From Promethearchaeota archaeon (GTDB lineage: Archaea; Asgardarchaeota; Lokiarchaeia; Sigyniarchaeales; SOKP01), in assembly GCA_019058445.1 (NCBI GenBank), contig JAHPZA010000001.1, forward strand, positions 64,001 through 128,000: DNA of 64,000 nt, read 5' to 3'. Each line of letters begins with the position of its first letter. The stretch's first letter is position 1. Shown here piece by piece: positions 39,442-46,285 of the stretch. The notes under the pieces were generated by a model. It had not been told where the DNA came from and ran no database searches. It saw only the letters and a program-made list of their open reading frames with translations. The translations under genes were made by a program, and so were the position numbers.

Positions 39442-40023
39442 ATGGGAAGAAGAAAGAGAAAACAACAAACCTATAAAAGAGTAAAAAGAGTCCCCAAAAT
39501 CTTTAATTGTCCAAATTGCGGGGAAAAGTCTGTAAAAGTGGAAAACATTAGGAAATCAGCAATAGCAACTGTAAAATGTGGTTATTGTGGATTAACTAAA
39601 GATGTCTTAGTGAATTCTATATCAGAACCTGTCGATGCGTTTGGTGATTTTATCGACATTTATTATGCAGATCAGGAGCTTTTAAGATTAGAAAAACGTG
39701 TTGACAAACTAAAAAGTGAGAAAGAATGGGCAGATTTAGCCTTTTGTTATTCTGTATTATCTGACATATGTAAAGCTAAAGCAGCTGAATCGTTAGAAGA
39801 TGATGAAAATGTTGATATAGAGGAGGCTAACAAATGGAAGATAAGGGCAGAGGAATATAAAAGAAAGGAGAAGGATGCTTTATTGACATTAGACACAAGT
39901 GAATTAGAGAGTGGTATTAAAACTGATGATGAGTCATTATTTACCGAGCACGATGAAAGTTCAATGAAAAAAGAGAAAAAGATTGAGGATATTTTCGACG
40001 ACCCAGGCTTTCTTGAGTTTTAG
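39442..40023 (+). CDS. elf1: Transcription elongation factor Elf1 with long C-terminal extension
   Basis: MGRRKRK...FNCPNCG...CGYCG...EPVDAFGDFID. Confidence 0.88.
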   Translation: MGRRKRKQQTYKRVKRVPKIFNCPNCGEKSVKVENIRKSAIATVKCGYCGLTKDVLVNSISEPVDAFGDFIDIYYADQELLRLEKRVDKLKSEKEWADLAFCYSVLSDICKAKAAESLEDDENVDIEEANKWKIRAEEYKRKEKDALLTLDTSELESGIKTDDESLFTEHDESSMKKEKKIEDIFDDPGFLEF

Positions 40024-40116: not shown

Positions 40117-41853
40117 TTAAGAATTATAGCCCCGTATTTTATTTTTAACACTTGAGGGAATATGAGTCCAAATAGGCAATTTTAAGACAAAATTAAAGAA
40201 TTGGTTAGGACTCATATTTTCATGCTTAATAAAATGGCTCCAATTATAATAAGCTAAATTATTGAAAAGATTCATCAGGTTTACTCCCATAGGATTATAT
40301 TTTGATGAAAAAAATCTAGCTAAATAACTTCCGATACGATTTGTCTGGGGGCTTGATTCCGGATACACTGATTCTGCCAATGGTCTGTTGAAGATTTCAT
40401 AAATAGAAATAATAGGAATGAGTTTATCCAACAATTCGTTTATTTTTGCACCATAGCTATCATCATCCAAAGAGAGAGAACTTAATTCGTTCAATTTTCT
40501 GACAGCATAGCGATAATGTCTCTCTTTGAAATATAGCCACATTTTAGCCATTTGATCCCGTAGTTCTTTAATTGATTCAATCACTTCAGCATCTTTAAAA
40601 TTAAATCCTTGTAATTTTTCGAATCTTTTAATAAAAGTCAATAATATTGAGTTTGTAGATTCTTGATCAAAATCGTCTTCACTCTCATCCTTACTTAAAA
40701 GCTTGTATTTTAACTCCTTTTCAGTAGGGGTATGTATTGTGTGTGTAAATAATGGTGTTGTCCATAAGTATTCCCGGAGTTTTTCCATTAATTTTATCGT
40801 TTGGCCATAGTTTTTAATAACCGTAAATTGTATTGATAAATACTTATCTGGGATTACTTGTTCTATGAAATACCTTATTTTATCTTTAATTTTTAAATAT
40901 TTTACTACGTTCTTCTTTTTTTTCTTGAGAGCAGAGACTTTTCTACTTAATAACTTATCAAGATTCATCAATTTTTCGATATATGAATAGAAATCTATAT
41001 CATACTTTTGAATAATGTTAGTATGTGATATTAAGGGAGTCTTTAATACTTGTGGTGAGGATGAGTCAAGAGCTATCTTGTCAACACTCATCGCATGATC
41101 TCCAATGGTATATGAAAAGATCACATTTTCAAGCGCTTCTTCTAGTGAAGCAAATTTTCCTAAGTAGTTTGGAACGCCCGTAAAAACTCCATGTAATAAG
41201 GTATTAATTCCTTTGAAAGTATCATTATCATATTCTGAAATAATAACTGATTCAAATTCTCCCGGATGATGTCTTTTCGATTTGATTTTCTTGTTAACAA
41301 GCACAATGGCTTGATTCGCTTTATGGCATACAGTATAGCTCCATTTTAAAAATGGTTGTATATATTTTACCATATTAAGATGATAGTTATAAAATTCGGG
41401 TCCGAAATAGATTGGAAATCCAAAACCTCGTGAAGTAGCAAAGATAAACTGAAATACATTTCTTGTTTTCTCTCCTTTTAGTAGCCCTGGAAATTTAAAG
41501 TGTAACACAATTTTAGGGTATAGCGCAGCTAACCCTAAGTTCATCCAAGCTTCAAACAGAATAATACTATCAGGAAATCTAAATGAATCTCTTTTACTTA
41601 AAAAATCATCACTTAACGTATTAAGAGCTATTGGGATGGTAAAGAGCCAATCTCCTTTTTTTCTAATAGTTGTTAATCCTTCTTTAAACTTTTTAAAGAT
41701 GAGCGGTTGGATTTGTTTTTGTATTTCACTTTTTTTATGATAATAGTTATTCATTACTCGAAACAAAGAGAGCATTTCAAGTATCTGCCTTTGAGAATTA
41801 TGGGCTACCTTTACATGAGAGCTTTTTTCCAATTTAAGTGTAGAATTCTGCAC
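40117..41853 (-). CDS. Hypothetical protein
   Basis: 578-aa ORF; no recognised motif. Confidence 0.75.
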   Translation of the reverse strand: MQNSTLKLEKSSHVKVAHNSQRQILEMLSLFRVMNNYYHKKSEIQKQIQPLIFKKFKEGLTTIRKKGDWLFTIPIALNTLSDDFLSKRDSFRFPDSIILFEAWMNLGLAALYPKIVLHFKFPGLLKGEKTRNVFQFIFATSRGFGFPIYFGPEFYNYHLNMVKYIQPFLKWSYTVCHKANQAIVLVNKKIKSKRHHPGEFESVIISEYDNDTFKGINTLLHGVFTGVPNYLGKFASLEEALENVIFSYTIGDHAMSVDKIALDSSSPQVLKTPLISHTNIIQKYDIDFYSYIEKLMNLDKLLSRKVSALKKKKKNVVKYLKIKDKIRYFIEQVIPDKYLSIQFTVIKNYGQTIKLMEKLREYLWTTPLFTHTIHTPTEKELKYKLLSKDESEDDFDQESTNSILLTFIKRFEKLQGFNFKDAEVIESIKELRDQMAKMWLYFKERHYRYAVRKLNELSSLSLDDDSYGAKINELLDKLIPIISIYEIFNRPLAESVYPESSPQTNRIGSYLARFFSSKYNPMGVNLMNLFNNLAYYNWSHFIKHENMSPNQFFNFVLKLPIWTHIPSSVKNKIRGYNS

Positions 41854-42028: not shown

Positions 42029-42490
42029 CTACTTCTTCCGCTTTGCGAAAAGCTGCTTCAACTCACCCATGATTGCCCCACGTAGGCTTTGAGGGCTTGC
42101 GGGTCGGCTAGGTCCGGGTGGTGGGCCTCCAGGGGGACCTCCGGGTGGACCTCCAGGGGGAGGTGGTGGACCTCCAGGGGGACCTCCGGGTGGACCTCCA
42201 GGGGGACCTCCAATAGAAGGTGCTATAGGTGCTACAGGCGCAGCGCCAGGAGAAGCTGGAGCTGCCACACCTCTAGTTTTTATAGCATTTAAATCGTTCG
42301 TCATCGTGTTAACTCTAGATTGTAGACTTGAAATTTGTGTTTTTAAATCAGCTAAAGATCCATCAACAAGGTCAGGTATTCGTAAAACAATTGTCATTAT
42401 TTTTTCAACAATGTCCCCAAACGCATTTACTTTTTCTTCTATTGGGGATTTCTTGGCTTTATCAAGGAAGCTTGCAAATTCTTCGGCTAT
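42029..42490 (-). CDS. Coiled-coil plus polyproline plus C-terminal amphipathic helix protein (WAVE/WASH-like architecture); probable ATA start, 153 aa
   Basis: GGTGA RBS then ATA at 42490 gives IAEEFASFLDKAKKSPIEEKVNAFGDIVEKI ahead of the track ORF; (GGPP)n and PPPP repeats; ends SLRGAIMGELKQLFAKRKK. Confidence 0.75.
   Translation of the reverse strand: MAEEFASFLDKAKKSPIEEKVNAFGDIVEKIMTIVLRIPDLVDGSLADLKTQISSLQSRVNTMTNDLNAIKTRGVAAPASPGAAPVAPIAPSIGGPPGGPPGGPPGGPPPPPGGPPGGPPGGPPPGPSRPASPQSLRGAIMGELKQLFAKRKK
42117..42210. repeat. Coding GC-rich tandem repeat encoding (GGPP)n
   Basis: Repeated ggacctccagggg / ggacctccgggt 12-mers. Confidence 0.85.
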
Positions 42491-42648: not shown

Positions 42649-43269
42649 TTAACTCATCTCAGTGGTTGAATCCTTTAGTTTTAACCATAAATCGTCAAGT
42701 TCGTCTTGCATTTGAACAAATTGTTCAATTTCTTTAAGTAAAATATTTCTGGCCCTATCGAAATCTCTTTGTAAATCATTTAACTCGTTTTCAAGCATAG
42801 TAAGTTTACTTCCCTCAATCATTTTATTTTTAGTTTTTTCTATGCTTAAAGCTTTTTTAATTACGCCTGATCTCCTGCCGGCAATAGTAGTAAGAGCTTC
42901 TGCAAATAAATCTCCCCTAGTTGCTAAATCATCTTTTCGAATAGCTAGATCTTTGATTGAGTTAACAAAATCATTGCTTGCTTCAATATATTTATCATTT
43001 TTGTGGATAAAATCTTGATAGTAATTTATTTCATCATCTTTTACATTTGATTTTGATTCTCTTGCAAGGGTTTGCATTTGTTTTAACACATCTCTAAATG
43101 TTCGATTAAGCAATTGCCGGGCGATATTTAATTTCGCAATATTGTCTGCAAGTTTTTTATGAGAATCAGAAACTGTTCTCTGTAATCTTGCGACTTTTTT
43201 AAGATGGGAAGCTAAATCTTTTTCCATTTTCGCAAGATCTAATTCATCTTCATGGGTTATAATTGGCAT
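42649..43269 (-). CDS. All-helical protein, BAR-domain-like
   Basis: 206 aa with three long amphipathic helices; KLTMLENELNDLQRDFDRARNILLKEIEQF resembles SNX/Vps5-type BAR helix 3. Confidence 0.55.
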   Translation of the reverse strand: MPIITHEDELDLAKMEKDLASHLKKVARLQRTVSDSHKKLADNIAKLNIARQLLNRTFRDVLKQMQTLARESKSNVKDDEINYYQDFIHKNDKYIEASNDFVNSIKDLAIRKDDLATRGDLFAEALTTIAGRRSGVIKKALSIEKTKNKMIEGSKLTMLENELNDLQRDFDRARNILLKEIEQFVQMQDELDDLWLKLKDSTTEMS

Positions 43270-44406: not shown

Positions 44407-45480
44407 TTATAATTTATATCTTAATATACCTACAATGGAACCTAAATCTATTATTTGTTGACCAGTAGAAGTTTGACTACTAACTATATCAACTTCCCCT
44501 CCAGAATATTCCACGTTGGTAATAATTCTCTCAATACTAAGTTTTTGAGTTTTTGAAGTCCCTCGAATTAATATATCTGCCACAAATAATTGTTTAATAG
44601 CACCCCTCTCAGAAGCTTCGCTGTTTTCATTAATACCAATTGAAATTAAATCGGGGTCTGTATTAAATAATTTAAAAATTTCTTCAATTTTTTCCGTTTC
44701 TTGTAATATTTTTATTTTCTCTTTTAATCCCGCCAATTCTTTAGATTTTAATGTCTCTCGAATAGCACTTTCCGTACCGGAGCTAGCGTGTATGCTTCTA
44801 ATTTTATGTATGTAATTGGGATTATATTTTTCTTTTAAATAATTTAGTAATAAATCTCTTGTATTTCCCGGGCCACAAAAAACAATTAAATTAATATCAG
44901 TTGAGTTTAGATTTTCTTCAATAATTTTTTTTAAATTTTCAAAAAAGTCAGTTAACGCTTTATTTCTTTGTGATTGTTCGTATCTTTTACCTGGTATGTG
45001 TGATTTTATTGTAGCTATCTTATTTTGACTAAAGTTTGTAATAATTTCGATTGTTGCAAGTCCCGTTTCAATCGCTATCATTAATATTACAAAGTTAGAC
45101 TCAAACTTAGAGGATTGTTTTAATCTTTTCATTTCTTGAGAAGACCATTTTTCTTTTATGATCGCAATTTTCTGTCCTTTTTCGATATTAAAGGTATGGT
45201 ATGTACCAAAACTTACAAAATCTTCTGGTCCCTCTATAATTGTCCCTTTAACTCTCAATCTATTTGAAAATTCATGAAAGGAAACATCCTCAACATTTAA
45301 TTTTAAAAACATAGGTTTTCTCTCACCTTTAGAGCCCTCTTTAAGTACTACTCTTCTTTGGGTTCGCGCAGCGACTTTATCATTTTTCGAGATGATATTA
45401 TACAGTGTCCACAGATCGTTTAAATTTTCTATTTTAACGATAATCTCTCCTTGTTTTTGATTGATTTCACGTATTTTCAA
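44407..45480 (-). CDS. pelA: Pelota/Dom34 ribosome rescue factor
   Basis: ENLNDLWTLYNII, FHEFSNRLRVKG, GTYHTFNI, LGSIVGILRY. Confidence 0.95.
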   Translation of the reverse strand: MKIREINQKQGEIIVKIENLNDLWTLYNIISKNDKVAARTQRRVVLKEGSKGERKPMFLKLNVEDVSFHEFSNRLRVKGTIIEGPEDFVSFGTYHTFNIEKGQKIAIIKEKWSSQEMKRLKQSSKFESNFVILMIAIETGLATIEIITNFSQNKIATIKSHIPGKRYEQSQRNKALTDFFENLKKIIEENLNSTDINLIVFCGPGNTRDLLLNYLKEKYNPNYIHKIRSIHASSGTESAIRETLKSKELAGLKEKIKILQETEKIEEIFKLFNTDPDLISIGINENSEASERGAIKQLFVADILIRGTSKTQKLSIERIITNVEYSGGEVDIVSSQTSTGQQIIDLGSIVGILRYKL

Positions 45481-45610
45481 ACTTAAATCTAAACTCCAAT
45501 AAAATTTTCTTATATTATAAGAAGAATAGATAGTAGAAAAATTGATTTACTATTAGAATGAAGTGAAGTTTAAAAAAATAGAAAAAAAATAAAGAAAAAA
45601 GAAATCTGAA

Positions 45611-45760
45611 TTATCCCTCTCCTAAAGCCTGCTTAACCTTCTCTAATTCTTCCATACGCTTCCTTTTTTCCTCTTCTCGCTTTTTCATCTCTGCTTCGTC
45701 TGGCTTAGCTAGAGATACTCCTTTCTTAATTTCATTTTCAAGCTCTTTATCTATTGGCAT
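45611..45760 (-). CDS. 49-aa peptide with WH2/actobindin-like motif and charged helix, absent from the ORF track
   Basis: MPIDKELENEIKKGVSLAKPDEAEMKKREEEKRKRMEELEKVKQALGEG; AGGTG RBS; TTATAAAT at about 45805-45812; T-rich tract after the stop. Confidence 0.75.
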   Translation of the reverse strand: MPIDKELENEIKKGVSLAKPDEAEMKKREEEKRKRMEELEKVKQALGEG

Positions 45761-45835
45761 ATTTCAGCAACACCTTTTTTTTTTATCTTATTATAAAAAA
45801 ACTTATTTATAAGTTTTAGTTTATAGAAAAATCAT

Positions 45836-46285
45836 CTAAAGAATATCTAATTTCATTAAATATGCGTCCTCTTTTGATTGGTAATATTGATTTATTTTCT
45901 GTACTATTTTGAAGCCAAACTTACGATATAATTTTATAGCGGTAGAGTTTTTGACTTGTACATTTAGGACGACTTTTTTGATATCAGTTGATTCCTTGAT
46001 TTTTTTAACGGTGTTGAATAAAAGAAAAGAGCCATACCCTTTATTGTGATAGTTAGGATTAACCAAAAAATTAATTATATTTGCTCTATCAATTCTATCT
46101 TTTACTACAATAATGAACCCTATAATTTCTTTTCTAATTTTATTTTTTTCTAATTTTAAAAAATAGAGATTATTTCGAATTAATTTTTTTATTAAGGCTT
46201 TCGAAAATGCATTTTTATTGAACACCGATTTTTCCAGAAAAAAGATGTCATTTACATCTTTCGAAGATACTTGTTTAATTTTCAT
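45836..46285 (-). CDS. rimI: RimI/Ard1-like GNAT N-acetyltransferase
   Basis: YHNKGYG, NSTAIKLYRKFGF, YYQSKEDAYLM. Confidence 0.85.
   Translation of the reverse strand: MKIKQVSSKDVNDIFFLEKSVFNKNAFSKALIKKLIRNNLYFLKLEKNKIRKEIIGFIIVVKDRIDRANIINFLVNPNYHNKGYGSFLLFNTVKKIKESTDIKKVVLNVQVKNSTAIKLYRKFGFKIVQKINQYYQSKEDAYLMKLDIL

Follow-up and report, generated by a model that had tools for sequence, protein, structure and literature searches.

The 64,000-nucleotide stretch analysed here (the window) belongs to contig JAHPZA010000001.1 of a Promethearchaeota archaeon and carries, on its minus strand, the gene for P0001, a candidate actin-binding microprotein. The open reading frame (ORF) begins with an ATG at 45760 and ends with a TAA stop at 45611-45613, and its 49 codons specify a protein of 5.7 kDa with a pI of 5.5, in which 27 of the 49 residues are charged. 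Residues 7 to 20 read L-x3-I-K-K-G-V-S-L-A-K-P, and the remainder is rich in Glu, Lys and Arg. A sequence-only reading of this DNA had proposed a 49-aa ORF at 45611-45760, with an L-x3-I-x2-G-x2-L motif carrying Ala at the first basic position and an E/K/R-rich stretch; the frame is present exactly as described, and both features are found in its residues.

The sequence-only reading had further assigned the gene its own promoter, a ribosome-binding site and a T-rich terminator, and had called it monocistronic. Comparison of eight orthologous loci from several genera bears this out. TATA-like boxes lie upstream of P0001 on the coding strand, and the 20-nt promoter block (Table 1), which sits right after the stop codon of the upstream GNAT gene, is identical at 8/8 loci; the surrounding spacer differs in both sequence and length. 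The GGTG site is conserved as well, and the T-rich tract downstream of the gene is retained at 8/8 loci. A scan for hairpin-type terminators found none at the P0001 locus, as expected, archaeal termination being of the oligo-T type, and a scan for bacterial sigma-70 promoters and hairpin terminators, a type of scan not applicable to archaea, returned matches at the level of shuffled sequence. The own-promoter, monocistronic reading is thus supported by the constraint on the gene, the invariant promoter block and the retained GGTG site and T-tract.

Table 1. Features at the P0001 locus (window coordinates)
Feature	Position	Strand	Basis
RimI-like GNAT gene, upstream of the peptide gene	45836-46285	-	
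Promoter block of 20 nt: A-rich element resembling a transcription factor B recognition element (BRE), plus TTATAAAT TATA box	45803..45822	-	100% identity across 8 loci
GGTG Shine-Dalgarno-like site, 10 nt 5' of the ATG	45771..45774	-	sequence; retained at orthologous loci
Coding sequence of the 49-aa protein P0001, stop included	45611..45760	-	ORF and translation; orthologues; synonymous versus nonsynonymous differences (pS vs pN)
WH2-like segment, residues 7-20: end of amphipathic helix, Gly, extended L-A-K-P	45701..45742	-	conservation; N-WASP alignment; AlphaFold
Residues 22-47: long charged helix with amphipathic C-terminal third; family-specific, best-conserved part of the module	45620..45697	-	AlphaFold; order-wide alignment
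Three oligo-T runs (T6, T8, T7) directly 3' of the stop, archaeal terminator-like	45572..45604	-	sequence
Pelota gene, downstream of the peptide gene	44407-45480	-	

P0001 is a real gene under strong purifying selection and is important to its hosts. A word-indexed search retrieves 133 proteins of 44-61 aa with 67-98% identity to it; all the named ones come from Asgard metagenome-assembled genomes and are annotated as 'hypothetical protein'. Orthologues occur in 39/41 related genomes (six-frame search), normally as one open frame of ~50 aa, and the stand-alone forms are 49-57 aa long. Across eight syntenic loci, identity ranges over 79-94% for the peptide, compared with 68-88% for pelota and 48-78% for the GNAT protein. 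Synonymous sites are near saturation (pS 0.35-1.0) as against a pN of 0.03-0.18, and unsaturated pairs give a dN/dS of ~0.05-0.17. Among the sampled genomes the gene is confined to one order of the phylum, so that the label 'Asgard', given to the peptide on first reading, is too broad. The profile of the P0001 family detects it in 38/40 genomes sampled from one taxonomic family of this order and in 2/3 from a second, but in none of ~157 genomes representing 25 further families of the phylum. An order-wide profile detects it in 50/54 and 5/5 genomes, with only two marginal matches elsewhere, and the gene is likewise present in the order's families 3 and 4. The divergent family-2 profile matches 261 small proteins, including one from Ca. 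Harpocratesius and NEF87_002417, the orthologue in the cultured species Ca. Lokiarchaeum ossiferum.

A lack of conservation of the motif residues among orthologues had been set beforehand as an observation that would refute a WH2-like assignment; the hydrophobic L / I / L-x-K-[V/P] scaffold is, on the contrary, kept throughout the order. In 33 family members, I11, K12, K13, G14, V15 and L17 are invariant and K19 nearly so; L7, also conserved, forms with I11, G14, L17 and K19 the amphipathic helix-Gly-L-[K/R]-[K/R]-[V/T] pattern of WH2 domains. At positions 17-20 the consensus of these members is L-Q-K-V, nearer to the canonical element than the L-A-K-P of P0001 itself. The most divergent orthologues retain the hydrophobic scaffold (h-x3-h...L-x-K-V), and the LKK variants for which a search had been recommended do occur: two divergent orthologues (L088:209-370:- and L086:221-385:-) carry LKKV and are more canonical than P0001, and the L. 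ossiferum orthologue has M-K-H-V at the equivalent position. In family-2 orthologues, that of L. ossiferum included, the spacing from helix to Leu is longer. By eye this spacing was likened to that of thymosin beta-4, a resemblance taken here only as a lead and unsupported by the PDB search, in which the family-2 profile retrieves no thymosin or thymosin beta-4 chain at E up to 10.

Structurally, the AlphaFold model of P0001 built on the family alignment (mean predicted local distance difference test score, pLDDT, of 88) consists of a helix at residues 5-13, a non-helical, extended segment at 14-21 and a second helix at 22-47, with pLDDT values of 93-95 in the region of this last helix. The first predicted helix stops at the Gly and L-x-K-[V/P] belongs to the extended stretch, an arrangement shared with WH2 and beta-thymosin peptides; the helix-then-extended LKKV layout of WH2 is therefore seen in this model of the free peptide. 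The residues that never vary across the order are K34, R35 and K41, with E24, E31, E38 and L39 nearly so. All of them lie in the second helix, which has an amphipathic, coiled-coil-like C-terminal third and coiled coils as its weak PDB matches. A Foldseek comparison of the 49-aa model with the PDB returned no match, a result that is uninformative for so short a helical peptide.

Unbiased profile searches lead to WH2 domains. The best PDB match of the family profile is a tandem WH2 construct of N-WASP crystallised on actin (3m3n_W, E 5e-4), and all three repeats of this chain align on L-x3-I-x2-G-x2-L-K-K-V. Lower matches include a WH2 peptide of MIM (E 0.41) and another WH2 of N-WASP (E 1.2); de novo TIM barrels ranked between these WH2 matches were rejected as artefacts of summing over repeats. 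With the order-wide profile, N-WASP is still the top match (E 0.03). An exhaustive HMMER search of 1.84 billion representative proteins yields 59 matches at E <=0.001, and beyond family members and their fusions only three are found, P0164, P0166 and P0176, all tandem WH2-type proteins. Each aligns to profile positions 4-22 only, two or three times. Pfam WH2 (PF02205, gathering score 23.1 bits) recognises P0164 (45.8 bits) and P0176 (25.8 bits), and these Pfam-positive proteins match the family profile at E 1e-5 to 4e-4; P0166, at 11.9 bits, lies under the cut-off and has the same type of repeat. All three stem from short metagenome contigs, and for one cluster member of these proteins the source is a Tara Oceans contig whose coding density is very low, which makes a eukaryotic origin likely.

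The module is not restricted to stand-alone peptides. The genome encodes exactly two module-bearing proteins, P0001 and a 258-aa fusion (L009:1017-1790:+, on contig C3 of G000 at 76016-76789). From its sequence matches, the N-terminal domain of the latter is assigned as an Asgard profilin (E 1e-10 to Odin profilin 5zza_P, solved with actin; 5e-9 to Heimdall profilin 7pbh_A; 1e-7 to Loki profilin-1 5yed_A), with the fusion partner domains scoring 16.6-21.6 bits against Pfam Profilin, under its threshold of 25. Residues ~164-200 match the family hidden Markov model at 35-37 bits (36.7). Other profilin fusions carry two modules (P0144) or four (P0152). Profilin binds actin monomers, so that, of the contextual evidence, its recurrent fusion with one to four modules argues most strongly for actin as the partner. 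The last module in these fusions is always followed by a ~55-aa C-terminal domain of unassigned function, with a predicted strand-strand-helix order and an invariant T-D-Y-I-Y-D-D-F core, and L009:1017-1790:+ ends in this domain. The AlphaFold model of the 258-aa fusion has a mean pLDDT of 51 on a shallow alignment and was used for the order of secondary structures only. In family 2, proteins of ~480-500 aa are made up of the complete 45-47-aa unit repeated 8-10 times in tandem (L010:1312-2748:- in G038, L011 in G032, P0126), and Pfam finds nothing in them. Further architectures join the module to leucine-rich repeats (LRR) and a RING-like zinc finger, to LRR and a ribbon-helix-helix (RHH) domain, or to a Ras/Roc GTPase and RHH; L013:1227-2282:- (G016) combines a Ras/Roc-type small GTPase, an RHH domain and the module in two complete or partial copies.

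The presence of just one peptide and one profilin fusion in this genome would also suit a micropeptide regulator that pairs helix-to-helix with the module of larger paralogues, acting as a competitor or decoy and not binding actin, and the amphipathic, coiled-coil-like end of helix 2, with its weak matches to coiled coils, is of the kind that such pairing would use. Such a role is nevertheless improbable: the peptide occurs in many genomes but the fused partners vary by family (profilin fusions in one, tandem proteins in the other), and pairing through helix 2 would need no invariant N-terminal motif.

A target for an actin-binding peptide is at hand, several actins being encoded in the genome. 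For the principal actin the match to eukaryotic actins reaches E 1e-160; its alignment shows conservation of the segments forming the cleft between subdomains 1 and 3 and of the acidic pair equivalent to D24/D25, with which WH2 domains make contact. Asp25 is conserved in Loki actins (PMC9433394). As a side observation, an ORF of 444 aa whose N-terminal domain is profilin-like (G000:C6:646253-646639 (-)) adjoins an actin paralogue (G000:C6:647116-648231 (-)), and this pairing recurs in G003, G010, G011 and G028. Two actin-family matches contain in-frame TAA codons (two in G000:C10:653495-654577 (-), one in G000:C9:593898-595019 (+)) and may be pseudogenes, split genes or the result of sequencing errors. 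The actin-related evidence applies equally to a protein that binds the sides of filaments or helps to bundle them: a filament could have the long charged helix aligned along it, and the paralogues with 8-10 copies could decorate one. Even so, the succession of short helix, Gly and extended L-x-K-V matches the type that binds the monomer cleft, and profilin, to which the module is fused, itself binds monomers, which leaves filament binding very improbable.

Several observations weigh against a WH2-like actin binder. The bare pattern L-x3-I-x2-G-x2-L-x-K has 7 matches in the genome's ORFs of >=120 aa against 6.6 in residue shuffles, which is the frequency expected by chance in this AT-rich, Lys/Glu-rich genome; a match to the motif alone is therefore no evidence, and the case rests on conservation and the other lines. 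The basic positions of LKKV drift, to LAKP in P0001 and to LSPV, LQSL or LEKI in others. The most invariant residues sit in helix 2, which has no counterpart in WH2. P0001 has no match to Pfam WH2, the 33 members produce one sub-threshold match (E 0.059), and the best of ten divergent orthologues scanned reaches 13 bits (E 0.088), also under threshold; Pfam Thymosin (PF01290) matches none of the 33 members and 10 divergent orthologues at E up to 10. The likeness to WH2 is specific, while homology is not established, because the significant profile scores sum two or three near-identical repeats, of which single ones score 4-9 bits. Of the fusion partners, LRR, RING, Ras/Roc GTPase and RHH domains are not specific to actin. 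Finally, profilin and the WH2 helix compete for the same face of actin, so that, on the textbook view, a profilin fusion cannot engage a single monomer with both.

A rival reading is a family-specific helical adaptor, in which helix 2 would bind some other conserved partner, the WH2 likeness would be convergent or incidental, and the profilin fusions would tether profilin to that partner. The order-wide invariant residues of helix 2, the variety of LRR, RING, Ras/Roc GTPase and RHH fusions, the unmatched Pfam WH2 and Thymosin models and the chance frequency of the bare motif all speak for it. What such an adaptor leaves unexplained is that the only non-family matches in 1.84 billion proteins are of WH2 type, that the motif columns are conserved and divergent orthologues carry a canonical LKKV, and that profilin recurs as a partner of one to four copies; it is accordingly held to be unlikely. 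The WH2/actobindin-like character claimed in the sequence-only reading stands in part: motif conservation, the unbiased searches and the profilin fusions favour it, whereas the Pfam WH2 and Thymosin thresholds are missed and the best-conserved part of the module is the family-specific helix 2.

Genomic neighborhood analysis places P0001 between the genes for a RimI-like GNAT and pelota, with radical-SAM genes beyond both. The gene order GNAT-peptide-pelota-radical-SAM holds in the two families sampled within the order, even where pelota identity falls to 42%, and this fixed position could suggest an accessory role in translation or ribosome rescue. At 25 pelota loci from other Asgard families, however, the same radical-SAM, nucleotidyltransferase and often GNAT neighbours are present, and no position-equivalent peptide lies beside pelota on either strand; the neighbourhood is therefore older than the peptide gene. 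Because the gene is younger than its surroundings and has its own invariant promoter, together with an oligo-T terminator, a translation role is highly unlikely. A core translation factor would, moreover, not be confined to one order, and profile searches of the PDB gave no ribosomal-protein matches.

Other proteins of the window were noted in passing. A 122-aa protein (42029-42397 (-)), present in 38/41 relatives, has a coiled coil at its N-terminus, a long poly-proline tract of the (GGPP)n type and, at the C-terminus, an invariant helix (S-L-R-G-A-I-M-G-E-L-K...) that runs out in a basic tail. Its gene lies 3.3-3.6 kb from the peptide gene in ~19 family-1 genomes; in family 2 the distance is 78-110 kb. 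Judged by eye, this helix is similar to the stretch just before the module in the LRR fusions P0160, P0162 and P0179, and the combination of poly-proline and amphipathic helix is reminiscent of WASP/VASP-type factors. The window also encodes a homologue of the Elf1-type zinc-ribbon transcription elongation factor with an acidic C-terminal extension of ~115 aa (39442-40023 (+), Pfam 67.9 bits), a 206-aa all-helical protein for which Pfam gives no BAR match and nothing else significant (42649-43269 (-)), and a 578-aa protein with no significant Pfam match (40117-41853 (-)).

Taken together, P0001 is read as a putative WH2/beta-thymosin-like peptide that binds Lokiactin monomers and has its own conserved promoter, with a probability of about 55%, and its family is probably a new candidate archaeal actin regulator. 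The proposed mechanism starts from a cytosolic 5.7-kDa peptide, transcribed from its own conserved promoter, that would engage monomeric Lokiactin as WH2/beta-thymosin domains do actin. The extended segment G14-D21, with L17 and K19, would run up the actin surface like an LKKV/LKKT element, and the charged helix 22-47, with its amphipathic end, may provide a second, family-specific contact. The stand-alone peptide would then buffer or sequester unpolymerised actin rather than deliver it, and the paralogues fused to profilin (1-4 copies) or built of 8-10 tandem copies may recruit or line up several monomers.

If this holds, a conserved and probably abundant WH2-like peptide would constitute a third class of regulator, including the profilin-fused and many-fold tandem versions, with a role in monomer buffering and possibly nucleation, and would bear on how much of the eukaryotic actin machinery preceded eukaryogenesis. 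A broader proposal, that Loki-type Asgard archaea possess a complete putative WH2/beta-thymosin-type toolkit sharing ancestry with eukaryotic WH2 (a buffering peptide, profilin-WH2 fusions and 8-10-fold tandem nucleators or elongation factors), is doubtful; were it true, WH2-based control of actin assembly would predate eukaryotes. More generally, microproteins of ~50 aa, annotated as 'hypothetical' or easily missed, can hide eukaryote-like functions.

Among known systems, one close parallel is the WH2 domain of N-WASP, MIM, WIP and actobindin-type proteins (PF02205), with which the family shares a short amphipathic helix running to a Gly and an extended L-[basic]-K-[V/T]. In HMMER alignments the L-x3-I-x2-G-x2-L-x-K-V spacing is identical to that of N-WASP, and the module, too, is found alone, in tandem arrays and alongside profilin-related functions. 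It differs in missing the Pfam threshold, in its variable basic residues and in always being followed by a highly conserved, charged helix of 26 residues, which eukaryotic WH2 domains lack. Beta-thymosins, ciboulot and thypedin (PF01290) offer a second parallel, in that both groups include stand-alone acidic peptides of ~45-55 aa with a helix, an extended L-x-K-[V/T] and a C-terminal helix, and many-fold tandem repeats of the whole unit, so that the layouts agree; the P0001 family has, in contrast, no match to Pfam Thymosin or, with the family-2 profile, to a thymosin chain in the PDB, and its C-terminal helix is longer and of other sequence.

Within archaea, the searchable literature contains no free-standing Asgard or Lokiactin WH2, thymosin or actobindin peptide, only a four-residue gelsolin linker. 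In Asgard two-domain gelsolins this LKKT-type linker (LRRV / LKHV / LVDV / LKDV) contacts actin in crystal structures (PMC9433394; bioRxiv 10.1101/2025.11.30.690169), and the M-K-H-V of the L. ossiferum orthologue resembles it at the equivalent place. The linker consists of four residues within the gelsolin fold, whereas the P0001 unit is encoded by a separate gene, behaves as a mobile module and brings an N-terminal helix of its own. Asgard regulators of this kind (profilins, gelsolins) act on rabbit actin (PMC9433394). Arcadin-2 of Crenarchaeota, a short helical peptide that occupies the hydrophobic groove of crenactin, the 'hot spot' of WH2 and thymosin (PMC5173319), is an archaeal precedent for a short peptide in the actin groove, although its sequence is unrelated and it acts on crenactin in another archaeal lineage.

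The composite architectures also have counterparts. Trypanosomatid profilin carries a WH2-like insertion, and both parts contribute to actin binding (PMC10907219); that element is an internal insertion of ~20 residues, whereas here one to four complete modules follow the profilin domain and a linker. The tandem-WH2 nucleators Spire, Cordon-bleu and the bacterial VopL/VopF line up several WH2-type units in a row, as do the 8-10-module proteins of family 2, which differ in repeating the whole 45-47-aa unit, second helix included, with little variable linker. Formally, the P0001 family is not a member of Pfam WH2 or Thymosin. The most fitting description is that of a new module, restricted to one order, in which a WH2-like front half is combined with a family-specific conserved helix.
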